Part shown: positions 1 to 5,174 of the stretch, in pieces
Numbering within the stretch: the stretch's first letter is position 1
How the letters are laid out: the number at the start of each line of letters is the position of its first letter
IMG/VR virus record: IMGVR_UViG_2778261527_000002
Strand: one strand, 5' to 3'
Length of the DNA stretch: 8,892 nucleotides
Origin: a virus
Lineage: Duplodnaviria > Heunggongvirae > Uroviricota > Caudoviricetes
The notes under the pieces: model-generated
Told to the model about the DNA's origin: nothing
Seen by the model: only the letters and a program-made list of their open reading frames with translations
Databases searched by the model: none
Position numbers and translations under genes: made by a program

Positions 1-1
1 G

Positions 2-67
2 TACGCCAGAGTGGGCGCGAGACGTTACGACAACTGGAAGCTAAAACTGGGGCAACAAGATATCTGA
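2..67 (+). CDS. 3' end of an upstream gene running off the left edge (…YARVGARRYDNWKLKLGQQDI*); product unknown
   Basis: Frame is open from the window start to TGA at 65-67, which overlaps the next ATG (TGATG), suggesting translational coupling. Only 21 codons visible. Confidence 0.3.
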   Translation, partial: YARVGARRYDNWKLKLGQQDI

Positions 68-366
68 TGAGCGTTCTTGCCAGAGAGCTGGTTGCCAGTG
101 GCGATGTATACAACTCTGGTTACGGGTTATTCCCGTCTGAACAGGCTCGTAAGGACTGGCAAAATGCCCGCAAAAAACTCTCAAGGGCAAAGCTGAAGAA
201 AAAAACATCTGTGGTTGATCCGGACCTTATCTGGTCGTTACCAGACGGAGAAATACGCCGCTATGACAGGCGTCTGAACATAATCTGTCGCGAGTGCCGG
301 AATAGTGAAGTTATGCAGCGTGTACTGGCTTTCTATCAGGGGAATTTTCAGGAGGCGGCGCAGTGA
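67..366 (+). CDS. hypothetical protein, 99 aa, basic, one CxxC motif (ICRECRN)
   Basis: Complete ORF in the track; its start overlaps the upstream stop and its stop overlaps the next start (GTGA at 363-366). No family recognised. Confidence 0.5.
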   Translation: MSVLARELVASGDVYNSGYGLFPSEQARKDWQNARKKLSRAKLKKKTSVVDPDLIWSLPDGEIRRYDRRLNIICRECRNSEVMQRVLAFYQGNFQEAAQ

Positions 367-563
367 GCAGGATTGACTACCAGGAATTGGCTGCTGCTAA
401 CGCTTTCCTAGCTGATGTACGGGCGGTGGCGTTTAACGACCTTTGCGCGGCGTTTGCCAGGCACGCAAAAGTTGCAGGACTGGATGATGCCGATACCGTA
501 ACGCTTAAGGAAGTGACAGAAGCATTGTTGCATTGTGCGGAACAGATTCGCGCGCCTGAATAA
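363..563 (+). CDS. hypothetical protein, 66 aa, Ala-rich, probable GTG start
   Basis: ORF in the track; GTG start overlaps the stop of the preceding ORF; followed by an AT-rich intergenic region. Confidence 0.4.
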   Translation: MSRIDYQELAAANAFLADVRAVAFNDLCAAFARHAKVAGLDDADTVTLKEVTEALLHCAEQIRAPE

Positions 564-658
564 TTAAATTTAGTGTTGTAAATAAAATTTAATCCTTAAC
601 CGGAGGGATTTCTGCACCCTCAGAACATCAGGAGGCCGCCCGAAAGGGCGGTAATGAA

Positions 659-841
659 ATGCGAAAGTTCAGAATAATTATTGAAACGGGAATAGCTGGT
701 GGAGATTTTGAGGATGTATTCGAAGTGGATGATGGTGCGACACCAGATGAAATACAGGACGAAGCAAAAGAAATTTTCTTTAACTACTGCAATTACTCAT
801 ATCACGAAATAAAAGATGAGGAGGAAGAACAAAATGGCTGA
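659..841 (+). CDS. small highly acidic protein, 60 aa (about 18 Asp/Glu, C-terminal EEEE)
   Basis: ORF in the track; AT-rich region and two hairpins upstream (603-621, 636-651); its last codons overlap the next gene's start (ATGGCTGA at 834-841). Confidence 0.5.
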   Translation: MRKFRIIIETGIAGGDFEDVFEVDDGATPDEIQDEAKEIFFNYCNYSYHEIKDEEEEQNG

Positions 842-1010
842 TTTTGGTTCAACTAAATACAACGTCAGTTTTGAAGAATGGCATGAACTGTTAATGGACT
901 ATGCAGAGTTACGCGGTGGAAGTGCCGCTGATGCTGAAGCATGGCGTGATGACTACGAAGCAGGAAAAACTCCGGTCGAAGCATATTGTGATGAGTGGGG
1001 CGATGAATGA
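834..1010 (+). CDS. small highly acidic, aromatic-rich protein, 58 aa (MADFGSTKYNVSFEEWHELL…)
   Basis: AGGAGG at 819-824 sits 9 nt upstream of ATG 834, so 834 is preferred over the track's 816 start. Stop overlaps the next start (ATGA at 1007-1010). Confidence 0.55.
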   Translation: MADFGSTKYNVSFEEWHELLMDYAELRGGSAADAEAWRDDYEAGKTPVEAYCDEWGDE

Positions 1011-1522
1011 GCGAGATTAATTATCAGGAAGGACATGAAACGGCAGGGCAGGCAAAACCAGTTGCATGGCGATATCGCTACGTGAAAAAAGGCATTACGG
1101 ACTCACAGGGGGAGCCGTGGGTTGGTGACTGGAAATATGTACCGACAAAAGAGGATTGCAACGACAGGCCGAGCTATGAAATTCAGGCGTTATTCACTGC
1201 CCCGCCTGTGCCACTGACATCAGAAGGACTGGTTAAAGCCGTGCGCTTTTATGAACAGGTAAAGCGTGAGAATCCACCAGTCGAAACAGGAGCATGGAAA
1301 GATGCTGTTGATTGGGTACTCAAAGAGGCCTGCAGTGCTGTCATTCTGGGTAAAGCCGACAACCCACCAGCTTCCGGCAATCAGGTTAGCGAATTAACAA
1401 TGTGGGTTAAACGACTGGTCAGCCAACTGAAAAAAGCCAAGCCGGACTGCAAATTACCGGAGAAGGCGATGGACTACCTGAAGCGAAACGGACTGATAAG
1501 CGTGGAGGATGTTTTACGGTGA
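1007..1522 (+). CDS. hypothetical protein, 171 aa
   Basis: Complete ORF, translationally coupled to the upstream acidic ORF by an ATGA overlap; last gene of the five-ORF operon. No family recognised. Confidence 0.6.
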   Translation: MSEINYQEGHETAGQAKPVAWRYRYVKKGITDSQGEPWVGDWKYVPTKEDCNDRPSYEIQALFTAPPVPLTSEGLVKAVRFYEQVKRENPPVETGAWKDAVDWVLKEACSAVILGKADNPPASGNQVSELTMWVKRLVSQLKKAKPDCKLPEKAMDYLKRNGLISVEDVLR

Positions 1523-1661
1523 GATAGTAAATGCATGTAATGAGACGGGGGGTGTGAGGGGAGGCTTCATCTGGATAGATCTTGCACCGTTCATATGTTA
1601 TAAAAACAATTCCTACTGTTAAATCGTTGTTTGTTTTAGTTGCTATATTTAAGGAGTGAAT

Positions 1662-1919
1662 ATGCAGTTAATTGTTGATTACCCAGATCATAACATTTAT
1701 TCATCTTTTGTGGATGCGGATGCTGAACTTCGAGAGTTAAATGGTGGGGCAGTAGTTGTAATAACGGTAAAAATACCTCTTACTAGCACATCGGAACAGT
1801 TGTTTAATAAATACACTTGCGGGGAAAGTCTTCGTATTAAATTGAGGAATGGCGATGAATGGAAAATGTATTTCGTTATGCTTGATGGAGGGCGCTATAT
1901 ATTTTCCTCGCACCTGTGA
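1662..1919 (+). CDS. hypothetical protein, 85 aa, in an AT-rich island
   Basis: Strong SD AAGGAG at 1651-1656 with a 5-nt spacer to ATG 1662 (preferred over GTG 1656 in the track). Local composition is visibly AT-rich compared with flanking DNA. Confidence 0.55.
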   Translation: MQLIVDYPDHNIYSSFVDADAELRELNGGAVVVITVKIPLTSTSEQLFNKYTCGESLRIKLRNGDEWKMYFVMLDGGRYIFSSHL

Positions 1920-1991
1920 TAAAAATGATGAGCCGAGACTGTATTTACGGGACGCTGAGAGAATACCATAGAAAAGCTTATCTAACTTAAG

Positions 1992-1997
1992 TAGAAT
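1992..1997 (+). promoter_or_regulatory. candidate -10 element (TAGAAT) for the hok/mok mRNA
   Basis: Lies about 6-8 nt upstream of the predicted hok mRNA 5' end (GCGGGTGCTTGAGG at 2003), which resembles the recalled R1 hok mRNA 5' end. No convincing -35 found. Confidence 0.3.
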
Positions 1998-2002
1998 TGC
2001 TG

Positions 2003-2016
2003 CGGGTGCTTGAGGC
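2003..2016 (+). promoter_or_regulatory. hok mRNA 5' fold-back (fbi-like) element, complementary to 2378..2392
   Basis: GCGGGTGCTTGAGG pairs with CCTCAACGCACCCGC in the 3' UTR (8 bp + 6 bp with a 1-nt bulge). Adjacent 5' hairpin CTATCTGCC/GGCAGATAG at 2016-2051. Confidence 0.5.
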
Positions 2017-2049
2017 TATCTGCCTCAGGCATGAACACCAAAGGCAGAT

Positions 2050-2123
2050 AGAGAAAAGCCCCAGTTAACATTACGCGTCCTGCAAGACGCTTAACATTAA
2101 TCTGAGGCTCAATCTATGAACGG
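2050..2123 (-). ncRNA. sok: Sok-like antisense RNA (antitoxin) of the hok/sok locus; ends approximate
   Basis: Minus-strand promoter with -35 TTGCCT (complement of 2153-2158), exact 17-nt spacer and -10 TAACCT (complement of 2130-2135), matching the recalled R1 sok promoter layout (TTGCGC-17-TATCCT). Predicted transcript overlaps the mok SD and start and contains a ~15-bp imperfect hairpin (2064-2099) followed by a U-rich tract. Confidence 0.45.
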
Positions 2124-2328
2124 CAAATCTAGGTTAGCCTCTTACGTGCCGAAAGGCAAGGAGAAGCAGGCTATGAAGCAGCAAAAGGCGATGTTAATCG
2201 CCCTGATCGTCATCTGTTTAACCGTCATAGTGACGGCACTGGTAACGAGGAAAGACCTCTGCGAGGTACGAATCCGAACCGGCCAGACGGAGGTCGCTGT
2301 CTTCACAGTCTACGAACCTGAGGAGTAA
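2116..2328 (+). CDS. mok: Mok-like reading frame (modulator of killing), 70 aa, in frame with and N-terminally extending hok
   Basis: ORF in the track starting 19 codons upstream of the hok ATG. An in-frame mok resembles chromosomal mokC-type loci as recalled, whereas R1 mok is out of frame. Confidence 0.45.
   Translation: MNGKSRLASYVPKGKEKQAMKQQKAMLIALIVICLTVIVTALVTRKDLCEVRIRTGQTEVAVFTVYEPEE
2130..2158 (-). promoter_or_regulatory. candidate sok promoter (-35 TTGCCT, 17-nt spacer, -10 TAACCT)
   Basis: Hexamers read directly from the reverse complement; position inside the mok 5' region matches the hok/sok paradigm. Confidence 0.45.
2173..2328 (+). CDS. hok: Hok/Gef-family type I toxin, 51 aa (MKQQKAMLIALIVICLTVIVTALVTRKDLCEVRIRTGQTEVAVFTVYEPEE)
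   Basis: Single transmembrane helix plus the conserved RKDLCEV…EVAVF…YE motif; near-identical to recalled HokD(RelF)/HokC(Gef). SD AAGGAGAAG lies upstream of ATG 2173. Confidence 0.85.
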   Translation: MKQQKAMLIALIVICLTVIVTALVTRKDLCEVRIRTGQTEVAVFTVYEPEE

Positions 2329-2335
2329 GAGACTT

Positions 2336-2357
2336 GGCGAGGGAGAAATCCCTCGCC
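2336..2357 (+). other. perfect 9-bp stem with GAAA tetraloop (GGCGAGGGA-GAAA-TCCCTCGCC) in the hok 3' UTR
   Basis: Exact inverted repeat read from the sequence, 8 nt after the hok stop codon; likely an mRNA-stabilising or folding element. Confidence 0.5.
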
Positions 2358-2377
2358 GCCTCTGATGTGTCAGGCAT

Positions 2378-2392
2378 CCTCAACGCACCCGC
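2378..2392 (+). promoter_or_regulatory. hok mRNA 3' fold-back element, complementary to the 5' end (2003..2016)
   Basis: Long-range complementarity, the hallmark of hok-family mRNAs. Confidence 0.5.
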
Positions 2393-2397
2393 ACTTA

Positions 2398-2417
2398 ACC
2401 CGCTTCGGCGTTTTTTC
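2398..2417 (+). terminator. candidate intrinsic terminator of the hok transcript (short CGC/GCG stem, UUCG loop, T6)
   Basis: ACCCGCTTCGGCG followed by TTTTTT. The stem is only 3 bp, so it is weak on its own; the same motif recurs in stronger form at 3063-3088. Confidence 0.4.
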
Positions 2418-2471
2418 CGTTGATTAACTCTAGTTATTAGAGAACCGAACTTTTATTGATGGGGCAGGGAG

Positions 2472-2864
2472 ATGAAGAAACTTGTTTTAGTCGCAGGTGT
2501 AATGATTGCAACAGTAATGTTGGGAGGGTGTGCAGCAAAGGTCGATCCAGCGTTGAAAGCAGAAGCAATGAAGCCACTAACATGTAATGATGAAAAGCAA
2601 TGTGACTTTTATTGGAAACGAGCGCAATTCTGGTTGGCTAATAATTCCTCATGGAAAATTCAAACGGCGACAGACACGCTAATTTCCACTTATAATCCCT
2701 CTCCAAATAGTCCATTCCTCGCTTATCAAGTGAGTAAAATGCCAAATGAAGATGGATCCTCAAGAATTTTCATCAAGCCTTTTTGCGATAATATGTTTGG
2801 CTGTCAACCAAACCCCTATCAGGCAGTTGTTTCCTTTAAAAACTTCGTTAAAACAGGGCAGTAG
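2472..2864 (+). CDS. predicted lipoprotein, 130 aa, Cys-rich mature domain, function unknown
   Basis: N-terminal MKKLVLVAGVMIATVMLGGC looks like a signal peptide with an L-G-G-C lipobox. GGGAG SD upstream of ATG 2472. Five further Cys in the mature part suggest periplasmic disulfides. Confidence 0.7.
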   Translation: MKKLVLVAGVMIATVMLGGCAAKVDPALKAEAMKPLTCNDEKQCDFYWKRAQFWLANNSSWKIQTATDTLISTYNPSPNSPFLAYQVSKMPNEDGSSRIFIKPFCDNMFGCQPNPYQAVVSFKNFVKTGQ

Positions 2865-3063
2865 TGTATAGCTTGGACGATAAATTATTAGTGAAAACGC
2901 CGTAAACCCTCACCCAATGTGGACTAAGCCTATCAAACATGACTGTGATGATTAGTCCGTAGTTGTTGCCTATGAAATCTGGATTGAGTCAGGGTTTAAT
3001 CCAATAATTATTCTATCGTTCCTTTACAAGTCCGGTATATTACTTTCAGTTTGTTTTAGCATA

Positions 3064-3088
3064 CCCGCTTCGGCGGGTTTTGTTTTTT
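3064..3088 (+). terminator. rho-independent terminator (CCCGC-TTCG-GCGGG stem-loop plus T-rich tract)
   Basis: 5-bp GC stem with UUCG tetraloop followed by TTTTGTTTTTT, at the end of a ~200-bp ORF-free stretch. Confidence 0.65.
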
Positions 3089-3160
3089 CCTGGCATTCTG
3101 GTTTACAATTCGCACGCCAGCCTGAACAACTGGCACCTGCTGCGCCAGCAGAGACAACCG

Positions 3161-3439
3161 ATGGCGCACGATACCAAATTACACAATTCTAATGATTCTG
3201 CCGTCTTTGCCAGCAGGCGCGGACGGCGTTTTCACGTATTCAAATCAGACTGGTTCCAGCATCCTCCATGCACTGAAGAGCAGGCGGAATGGATAATTCA
3301 GTGTTACCGCAGGCGCGGATACGAGGTTAAGAAAGCCCTCAGCCTCGATTATCGTCACTGGATAATCTATGTCAGGCTCCCTTATTCCGAACGCCCACCG
3401 CGCCCATCCCGCACATACCAGCAACGGATCTGGAGGTAA
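3161..3439 (+). CDS. hypothetical protein, about 92 aa ([16 protein letters not shown]…); may be a junction artefact
   Basis: The track ORF (3080..3439) begins inside the terminator T-run, so ATG 3161 is the more plausible start. No clear SD. Its 3' end overlaps the start of the J-derived ORF in another frame. Confidence 0.3.
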
Positions 3440-5174
3440 CGTGCGGATATTACTTCGACCTGTTCTGGTACCGGAGAAAGAAGCCATCGTGGATAACGGG
3501 GCGCACTTTGACGGTGACCAGAGCGGCACGGTGAATGGTGTCACGCCGCCAGCAGTTCAGCACCTGACCGCAGAAGTCACCGCAGACAGCGGGGAATACC
3601 AGGTGCTGGCGCGCTGGGACACGCCGAAGGTGGTGAAGGGGGTGAGCTTTATGCTTCGCCTGACCGTGGCAGCGGACGACGGCAGTGAGCGGTTGGTCAG
3701 CACGGCCCGGACGACGGAAACCACATATCGCTTCACGCAGCTGGCGCTGGGAAATTACAGGCTGACAGTCCGGGCGGTAAATGCATGGGGACAGCAGGGC
3801 GATCCGGCATCGGTATTGTTCCGGATCGCCGCACCGGCAGCGCCGTCGCGGATTGAGCTGACGCCGGGCTATTTTCAGATAACCGCCACGCCGCATCTTG
3901 CGGTTTATGATCCGACGGTACAGTTTGAGTTCTGGTTCTCGGAAAAGCGGATTGCGGATATCAGGCAGGTTGAAACCACAGCCCGCTATCTTGGTACGGC
4001 GCTGTACTGGATAGCCGCCAGTATCAATATCAAACCGGGCCATGATTATTACTTTTATATCCGCAGTGTGAACACCGTAGGCAAATCGGCATTTGTGGAG
4101 GCCGTCGGTCGGGCGAGCGATGATGCATCCGGCTATCTGGATTTTTTCAAAGGCGAGATAGGGAAAACCCATCTGGCTCAGGAGCTGTGGACGCAGATTG
4201 ATAACGGTCAGCTTGCGCCTGACCTGGCTGAAATCAGGACGTCCATTACGGATGTCAGCAATGAAATCACGCAGACCGTCAATAAGAAACTGGAAGACCA
4301 GAGTGCGGCAATTCAGCAGATACAGAAGGTTCAGGTTGATACAAATAATAACCTGAACAGCATGTGGGCTGTGAAGCTGCAGCAGATGCAGGACGGACGC
4401 CTTTATATCGCGGGTATTGGTGCCGGTATTGAGAACACCCCTGACGGCATGCAGAGTCAGGTGCTGCTGGCGGCGGACAGGATTGCGATGGTTAATCCTG
4501 CGAATGGCAACACAAAACCGATGTTTGTTGGTCAGGGTGATCAGATATTCATGAACGACGTGTTCCTGAAACGCCTGACGGCCCCCACCATTACCAGCGG
4601 TGGAAATCCACCGGCATTTTCCCTGACACCGGACGGGCGACTGACGGCGAAAAATGCGGATATCAGTGGCAGTGTGAATGCGAACGCCGGGACGCTCAAC
4701 AATGTCACGATAAATGAAAACTGTCGGGTTCTGGGAAAACTGTCTGCGAACCAGATTGAAGGCGATCTCGTTAAAACAGTGGGCAAAGCTTTCCCCCGGG
4801 ACTCCCGTGCACCGGAGCGGTGGCCATCAGGGACCATTACCGTCAGGGTTTATGACGATCAGCCGTTTGACCGGCAGATTGTTATTCCCGCGGTGGCGTT
4901 TCGTGGCGCTAAACATGAGCGGGAGAATAACGATATTTATTCGTCATGCCGCCTGATAGTGAAGAAAAACGGTGCTGAAATTTATAACCGTACCGCGCTG
5001 GATAATACGCTGGTTTATACAGGTGTTATTGATATGCCTGCTGGTCGCGGTCACATGACGCTGGAGTTTTCGGTATCAGCGTGGCTGGTAAATGACTGGT
5101 ATCCCACAGCCAGTATCAGTGATTTGCTGGTTGTGGTGATGAAGAAATCCACCGCAGGCATCAGTATCAGCTGA
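3369..5174 (+). pseudogene. J: 5'-truncated tail-tip host-specificity protein J (about the C-terminal half, with the receptor-binding end); J similarity starts near 3465
   Basis: From [16 protein letters not shown] onward the translation tracks the recalled C-terminal half of lambda J (e.g. [32 protein letters not shown]). The first ~33 codons are unrelated, the frame closes at a TAA at 3363-3365, and there is no SD at ATG 3369. Whether the fragment is expressed is unknown. Confidence 0.75.

Follow-up and report, generated by a model that had tools for sequence, protein, structure and literature searches.

The hok/sok locus is a textbook type I toxin-antitoxin (TA) system, and on plasmid R1 (parB) it stabilizes the plasmid by post-segregational killing. 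According to the model for R1, the full-length mRNA is closed by pairing of the translational activator element (tac) with the fold-back inhibitory element (fbi) and of the mok Shine-Dalgarno (SD) sequence with the ucb element, while the 3′-trimmed mRNA is open, with tac paired to ucb and with the Sok target and the mok SD exposed (PMC9841398). The same model includes a metastable 5′ hairpin, in which tac finds a partner, and a protective last stem-loop on the trimmed RNA. In prophages, experiments have established hokW-sokW of Sp5, an Stx2 phage of Escherichia coli O157:H7 related to phage 933W, as a type I TA system (PMC8621323). Here, a stretch of 8,892 nucleotides of viral DNA (IMG/VR record IMGVR_UViG_2778261527_000002; the window) was analyzed, of which positions 1969-2416 very probably constitute a sequence-intact hok/mok/sok type I TA cassette of the hokD/hokW class. 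A complete locus of this kind inside a prophage had been proposed in the initial annotation, and this was borne out by DNA identical to loci annotated as hokD, by 93% identity to hokW/mokW/sokW and by the conservation of R1-type cis elements. The system as such is known, common and already annotated. What is added here is a corrected anatomy of the terminator, the insertion of a lipoprotein gene and the clustering of the differences from sokW in the recognition tail of Sok. Features are on the + strand unless indicated otherwise.

Both coding frames predicted in the initial annotation, a hok open reading frame (ORF) and an in-frame mok ORF, were found. The hok ORF (2173-2328) encodes 51 amino acids, matches the Pfam family HOK_GEF (PF01848) with an E-value of 6.4e-22 (77.3 bits, cut-off 22) and is preceded by the SD sequence AAGGAG at 2158-2163. 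The NCBIfam Hok models yielded only matches below their cut-offs. The deduced protein is identical to HokD of E. coli K-12 at 50 of 51 positions, to HokW at 47 of 51 and to R1 Hok at 22 of 52. The mok ORF (2116-2328; 70 amino acids) starts 19 codons upstream of the hok start, is in the hok frame and shares its stop codon, a layout which in frame and position is that of the annotated mokW of phage 933W. Its product matched PHROG 251 ('MokW-like host killing', 7.9e-32). A mok SD sequence, GAGG, can be read at 2103-2106, 9 nt before the mok ATG, and is paired in the full-length fold. By analogy to the described systems, translation of hok should be coupled to that of mok; the sequence of the Mok peptide evidently lacks conservation, in keeping with a purely translational-coupling role. 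Upstream of and into hok, the full model (1-157) of Rfam family RF01794 matched 2004-2178 on the + strand with 111.7 bits (E=2e-25; gathering score 59). Despite its name, this family describes the structured leader at the 5′ end of hok mRNA.

Compared to hokW/mokW/sokW of phage 933W, the window revealed 93% DNA identity over 1987-2400. Both loci are prophage-borne and alike in the in-frame mok and in the tac and fbi sequences. They differ at six of ten nucleotides in mok codons 2-5, which correspond to the Sok tail, in the C-terminus of Hok (TVYEPEE in the window, VDYESEK in HokW) and in their position within the phage genome. Directly after fbi, 933W contains unrelated sequence whereas the window contains a truncated terminator and the lipoprotein insertion. 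The hokD gene (relF) of K-12 resides, like the window locus, in a lambdoid prophage (the cryptic prophage Qin) upstream of Q-type genes. The two proteins are distinguished by the exchange A46V, and the DNA is 96.5% identical over 2159-2416, including the 3′ hairpin and fbi. However, K-12 hokD aligns only from 2159 on, because its 5′ side is cut by relBE, with relE abutting. It is devoid of the hok promoter, tac, ucb, the mok start and the sok −10 box. On the other hand, it has retained an intact terminator, which the window does not possess at that position. The window thus shows, with all elements annotated, how the locus now truncated in K-12 (hokD) looked before relBE replaced its 5′ half.

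With R1 hok/mok/sok, the window shares the order and spacing of tac, its metastable partner, ucb, mok SD, mok, sok promoter, hok, 3′ hairpin and fbi. The cores of the tac-fbi helix differ (GGCGC/GCGCC in R1, GGGUGC/GCACCC in the window), and the R1 locus is plasmid-borne with demonstrated post-segregational killing while the window locus is prophage-borne. A further relative, the Rac-type prophage MN652886 of E. coli 442/2, is 92-93% identical over 1942-2422, has similar hypothetical genes upstream and carries annotated mok and hok genes. By contrast, its mok (1676-1889 of the fetched locus L003) is shifted out of the hok frame by an extra base at the sok −35 site (TTGACC type), and its hok is followed by rem without any lipoprotein module. 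Among the cassettes, this extra base (TTGACC versus TTGCCT) leaves mok out of frame in some and in frame in others.

The control elements known from R1 could be assigned along the whole transcript. The mRNA start is inferred to lie at about 2004, and a predicted hok/mok promoter at 1969-1997 (−35 TAGAAA at 1969-1974, 17-nt spacer, −10 TAGAAT at 1992-1997) is suitably placed for it. With a score of 9/12, this was the sole sigma-70-like site on the + strand in a promoter scan of 1850-2550. The −10 box is kept in most relatives, the −35 box lies outside the conserved cassette, whose start is at 1980-1987. The edge of the cassette falls between the two hexamers, meaning that TAGAAT moves with the cassette and the −35 box comes from the upstream DNA, which supplies TAGAAA in the window and TTTGCG or TTGGCG in other contexts. 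Thus, the strength of the hok promoter may vary with the context into which the cassette is inserted.

At the 5′ end of the mRNA, tac (2004-2015, GGGUGCUUGAGG) pairs with 2379-2391 in the full-length fold and with AGCCCC (approximately 2057-2062) in the truncated fold. Its partner in a predicted metastable 5′ hairpin (GCCUCAGGCA, 2022-2031) forms an inverted repeat with 2007-2016 that is 90% complementary, and the hairpin (2006-2032) appeared in the centroid structure of the truncated fold. The ucb element or anti-SD box (2057-2064, AGCCCCAG) pairs with the mok SD region at 2101-2108 (CUGAGGCU) in the closed form, in the minimum free energy (MFE) as well as in the centroid structure. Behind hok, the perfect 9-bp hairpin already noticed in the initial annotation is located at 2336-2357 (2336-2344/2349-2357); it is GC-rich and has a GAAA loop. 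The segment 2330-2365 containing it folds at −21.4 kcal/mol, a stability reached by none of 200 shuffled sequences. The homologous last stem-loop of the truncated R1 mRNA shields against 3′ exonucleases (PMC9841398), and by analogy the hairpin is a probable protector of the 3′ end of the processed mRNA. The fbi element (CCUCAACGCACCCGC) follows at 2379-2393. The fold-back complementarity claimed at the outset was recovered here: 2001-2009 and 2385-2393 are complementary without a mismatch, and the helix of 2004-2015 with 2379-2391, interrupted by a single bulge, has a free energy of −21.5 kcal/mol. Long-range pairing of tac and fbi, ucb opposite the mok SD and a 3′ stem-loop upstream of fbi are all traits of the hok/mok/sok family which are present in this sequence.

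Folding of the two mRNA forms, which the initial annotation had recommended as a check, reproduced both the closed and the open conformation. The full-length RNA (2004-2416) adopted the closed form at −167.2 kcal/mol (z −7.3), with its nucleotides 1-12 paired to 2379-2391 and the hok SD enclosed in a local hairpin. In the truncated RNA (2004-2362; z −6.3), the pairing of tac with AGCCCC was part of the MFE structure. The same geometry was found in relatives, as the first 14 nt paired best 45-56 nt past the hok stop codon in 20 of 23 loci. Within tac and fbi, compensatory changes were observed (GGGUGC/GCACCC versus GGGCGC/GCGCCC; GAGG/CCUC versus GAGA/UCUC and GAAG/CUUC). Covariation was analyzed on an alignment of 21 diverse loci from Escherichia, Kluyvera, Citrobacter, Pantoea, Erwinia, Kalamiella, Photorhabdus and an R1-type plasmid. 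The 5′ ends of the loci were set from the Rfam hits. Two loci (L020 and L042) were excluded and a third (L005) was trimmed by hand, the duplex prediction having mislocated fbi in all three. L005 is an R1-type locus and not R1 itself; as the published R1 numbering (G105/A106 in the mok SD) deviates by about 4 nt, R1 position numbers were not transferred. When the full-length structure of the window was projected on the 21 loci, 84.7% of the cells were paired, compared to 38-46% when the partners were slid by 1-3 columns. In 44 pairs, both partners had changed (12-20 in the slid controls), and the covariation score was reached by none of 500 shuffles. Since the projected structure comes from a sequence that is itself part of the alignment, it is somewhat favored, but the margin is still large. 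Among the individual helices, tac-fbi (helix 1) was 90% paired with four double-sided changes and ucb:mok SD (helix 4) 83.9% paired with six, while the 9-bp 3′ hairpin (helix 16) also showed six. A decayed pseudo-locus was rejected, since every element is present and covarying.

For the antisense RNA, a predicted Sok of 71 nt was placed on the − strand at 2124-2054. These coordinates were carried over from the annotated sokW of 933W (1568-1638 of the fetched locus L002), from which the window differs without indels; 64 of the 71 nucleotides are identical. The predicted RNA (−30.0 kcal/mol, z −5.6) has an unpaired 14-nt 5′ tail across the region of the mok start codon, followed by a long hairpin ending with GGGGCUUUU. 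Its promoter (2131-2159, − strand) consists of the −35 hexamer TTGCCT (2159-2154) and the −10 hexamer TAACCT (2136-2131) separated by exactly 17 nt. The initial annotation had singled out precisely these hexamers, with their exact 17-nt spacer and placed as in R1 sok, and this was confirmed: they align with TTGCGC-17-TATCCT, as read here from the R1-type locus. Both loci match RF01794. All 29 bp of the promoter are identical to the sokW promoter of 933W and unchanged in 64 of 133 fetched loci, 933W included. Across the 21 diverse loci, TTG of the −35 box and A−11 and T−7 of the −10 box are invariant, and the lack of conservation which the initial annotation had named as evidence against the promoter was not seen. 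In Sp5, hokW is toxic, and hokW and sokW RNAs were both detected on northern blots (PMC8621323). A pro-less construct with substitutions around the sokW −10 box no longer protected against HokW, and sokW supplied in trans restored the protection partly (PMC8621323). According to our reading of primer YO-421 of that study, four bases were altered at the sokW box, three of them within the −10 hexamer. A cis-encoded antisense Sok with its promoter inside the mok/hok 5′ region and a tail over the mok start, as is characteristic of the family, is thereby found in the window at the sequence level. Among near-identical cassettes, the region corresponding to window positions 2114-2130, which comprises the Sok 5′ tail and mok codons 1-5, is a variable patch (AAATCT, ACACGT, ACATGT, AACATA and others). 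Such a variability of the Sok tail and the Mok N-terminus may insulate co-resident hok loci from one another's Sok.

In all likelihood, the locus thus comprises a Hok toxin gene under RNA control of the R1 type together with its cognate Sok. The following mechanism is based on homology with R1 hok/sok and Sp5 hokW-sokW. A weak promoter (−10 TAGAAT) would give rise to a stable mok-hok mRNA starting near 2004. In the full-length RNA, tac would be paired to fbi (2379-2391), the segment 2057-2064 would hide the mok SD and the hok SD would be held in its local hairpin, allowing no translation. Slow trimming from the 3′ end to the 9-bp hairpin (2336-2357) would remove fbi, upon which tac would turn to the anti-SD box and the region around the mok start would open. 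Sok, expected to be abundant but unstable, would bind this open form by its single-stranded 5′ tail over the mok start, thereby blocking translation of mok and the coupled hok and leading to cleavage of the duplex. Once the supply of Sok ends, the 51-amino-acid membrane toxin Hok would be made.

At its 3′ end, the cassette deviates from this scheme. The initial annotation had listed a U-tract terminator, a claim that did not hold. A run of six T (2411-2416) is present, yet the preceding stem has only 3 bp (CGC-UUCG-GCG, 2401-2410; −3.1 kcal/mol), 53 of 200 shuffled sequences folded equally well and a terminator scan revealed no match at 2398-2416. Nearly all relatives contain the family terminator ACCCGC-TTCG-GCGGGT followed by a T run, and the copy of K-12 hokD is intact (−11.8 kcal/mol). 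Where the relatives have ACCCGCTTCGGCGGGT, the window reads ACCCGCTTCGGCG followed by TTTTTT (2398-2416). An intact intrinsic terminator directly after fbi, which is typical of the hokD class though not universal, is thus missing here. The description as regulatorily intact applies to the cis elements of the RNA switch and not to the terminator, which is a crippled remnant. A sequencing or assembly error as the cause of this variant was rejected, given that the junction occurs in 251 complete genomes, in 236 of them at an identity of at least 99%. Phage 933W is also devoid of a hairpin terminator after fbi. Since hokW-sokW is functional without it, the crippled terminator does not disqualify the window locus.

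The remnant is explained by an inserted module of 665 bp (2411-3075) flanked by a 13-bp direct repeat, ACCCGCTTCGGCG, at 2398-2410 and 3063-3075. In five relatives with an empty site, the sequence corresponding to window position 2410 runs straight into 3076. At 3063-3088, an intact intrinsic terminator of the hok family (ACCCGC-TTCG-GCGGGT followed by TTTGTTTTTT) was detected, the sole terminator-like site in 2400-3500. Together with the typical cassette flank (…GGGTTTTGTTTTTTCCTGGCATTCTGG) it makes up 3063-3110, a segment identical to that of empty-site cassettes. The module is located inside the predicted hok terminator, of which 13 bp are duplicated, and the intact copy has been displaced downstream. 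It contains an ORF (2472-2864) for a lipoprotein of 130 amino acids (phrog_16082) that has a signal peptide and the lipobox LGGC and for which no Pfam, NCBIfam, PADLOC or PDB sequence match was obtained. For the neighboring ORFs, too, NCBIfam, PADLOC and PDB sequence searches returned no usable match.

Because no promoter-like site was found in a promoter scan of 2417-2471, co-transcription of hok and the lipoprotein gene is plausible, and part of the transcripts would probably read through the crippled terminator to the intact one at 3063-3088. It is therefore conceivable, although we would put this below an even chance, that the constitutive hok promoter and the stable transcript serve as an expression platform for the lipoprotein gene in lysogens, forming one unit that ends at 3063-3088. 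This would fit the two repeats flanking the insert, of which the upstream copy has 3 bp of stem and the downstream copy is intact. It would also fit the distribution of the module: of 5426 complete E. coli genomes, 254 contain the insert and 251 its junction with hok, and in both phage records containing the lipoprotein gene it directly follows hok. Moreover, the closed hok domain was unaltered in a modelled read-through RNA of 1085 nt. On the other hand, the scan is a crude consensus test, which an internal promoter could escape, the T6 run with its UUCG-capped 3-bp stem might still stop some transcripts, and early phage transcription from upstream is an alternative source of read-through. 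A more far-reaching version, in which the insertion creates a hok-lipoprotein operon whose promoter drives a lysogenic-conversion lipoprotein and whose longer 3′ extension shifts the rate of fbi trimming, and hence the activation of the toxin mRNA, is possible but doubtful. The insertion splitting the terminator is a small case of a moron built on a moron and could be used to probe how the position of the 3′ end affects activation of hok mRNA.

Strain 2009C-3133 carries a lambdoid prophage that matches positions 1-3475 of the window at 100% identity and in which hok is situated between genes of the replication region (replisome organizer, DUF977, DUF7167) and DUF968-RusA-Q. A stretch of 531 bases (1940-2470) is 100% identical to loci annotated as hokD in E. 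coli 2009C-3133, APEC E19025 and IZSBS22. Used as a query against the 5426 complete E. coli genomes, it matched 4725, at a median of two places per genome, and up to ten hok loci per genome were counted. At least 80% of the query was covered in at least 3281 genomes. The initial annotation had set this locus apart from decayed K-12 copies; this is correct for hokD, which lacks its 5′ half, but the coverage figures demonstrate that intactness is not unusual. Matches were also obtained in 79 phage records, among them 933W with 93.3% identity and annotated hokW, mokW and a 71-nt sokW. In 132 fetched loci, the alignments mostly started at 1980-1992 and ended at 2410-2422, and from these sharp edges it can be concluded that a discrete cassette of about 430 bp occurs in many contexts. 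It is highly probable that this cassette is a moron-like unit of a lambdoid (Rac-like) E. coli prophage, in which it has the replication genes on one side and nin/Q-type genes on the other.

Several points weigh against a functional R1-type locus. Compared to the consensus, the sok hexamers are weak (7/12) and the generic promoter scan did not report the sok promoter, which remained below its threshold. The generic pattern TTGN3-N17-TAN3T was found twice in the window, 4.2 occurrences being expected, and is not enriched. In view of the scan and this count, motif strength was discarded as evidence, and the sok promoter was called because of homology (its identity to that of sokW) and conservation. 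The 5′ tail of Sok differs from SokW at six of the first ten nucleotides, where six of the seven differences in total are found, and the SokW data are therefore not transferable nucleotide for nucleotide. Because the terminator is crippled, the 3′ end may be formed in another way than in R1, and fbi may be removed at a different rate. The prophage itself is devoid of Q, of lysis and head genes and of most tail genes, about 23 kb being absent in comparison to its closest complete relative. Finally, as summarized in bioRxiv 10.1101/2025.08.07.668861, the intact chromosomal loci hokA, hokB and hokC reportedly failed to mediate post-segregational killing.

Alternatively, the locus might be physiologically silent despite its intact sequence. 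It would then neither kill upon loss of Sok nor stabilize the prophage, and would owe its persistence to hitch-hiking and recent horizontal spread and not to selection for a function. In the same preprint, chromosomal hok loci are also described as not being activated by rifampicin, which is in line with silence, as are the deletion-derived state of the host prophage and the crippled terminator. Also, a second cysteine of Hok may need editing. The codon of Tyr47 contains the motif TACG (2311-2314), a candidate site for A-to-I editing by TadA (Tyr to Cys), and TACGAA (2311-2316) is invariant in the 21 diverse hok loci. At the matching Tyr/Cys position, the mRNAs of hokC, hokD and hokE are reported to be edited in this way (bioRxiv 10.1101/2025.08.07.668861). 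If Tyr47 were edited, Hok, which encodes one cysteine on the periplasmic side (C30), would gain a second one. By contrast, all cis elements are kept with compensatory changes across genera, which indicates purifying selection on the RNA switch; hokW-sokW, 93% identical, is toxic and controlled by Sok (PMC8621323); and the cassette has kept sharp boundaries in hundreds of prophage contexts. A silent locus is considered unlikely.

As to the function, prophage maintenance or abortive infection had been suggested in the initial annotation, but the one prophage homologue characterized, hokW-sokW, advances lysis and doubles the release of Sp5 after induction (PMC8621323). In the window, however, 3468-3475 marks a jump of about 23.3 kb in terms of the 2009C-3133 prophage. 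Here, the start of the DUF968 gene runs, with an 8-bp overlap, into the 3′ part of the tail-tip gene J, and lom and stf come next. The junction yields a chimeric ORF (3369-5174), and the host prophage looks defective. Owing to the loss of about 23 kb, the role of hokW in phage release cannot apply as such here. The cassette might act mainly as an anti-phage module mediating abortive infection or exclusion, its trigger being the decay of Sok once an infecting phage has halted transcription in the host. With R1 hok/sok present on a high-copy plasmid, the plating efficiency and plaque size of T4 were reduced, as cited in PMC8621323 and bioRxiv 10.1101/2025.08.07.668861, and defense genes are frequent in prophages. 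But this T4 effect required a high copy number, no PADLOC model matched Hok, Mok or the neighboring genes, hok is not enriched near defense systems (bioRxiv 10.1101/2025.08.07.668861), and the sole prophage hok studied supports phage release and did not block phages (PMC8621323). An exclusion module is thus quite improbable. For Hok and Sok in a prophage deficient in particle formation, it is most likely that they either stabilize the element or have no role at present.

Near-identical hok sequences of the E. coli type were found on very short contigs labelled Acinetobacter idrijaensis (275 bp; L021) and Xanthomonas pisi (431 bp; L026), and a record named Actinobacillus phage vB_Apl-pPE4 (PP818812) contains hok at 96% identity. 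These matches probably reflect contamination or mislabelling and not the host range. In Erwinia sp. CGal63 and Kalamiella, CRISPR-DR4 repeats precede the start of the hok mRNA by approximately 100-240 bp (L047, 1050-1197; L049, 1162-1189).

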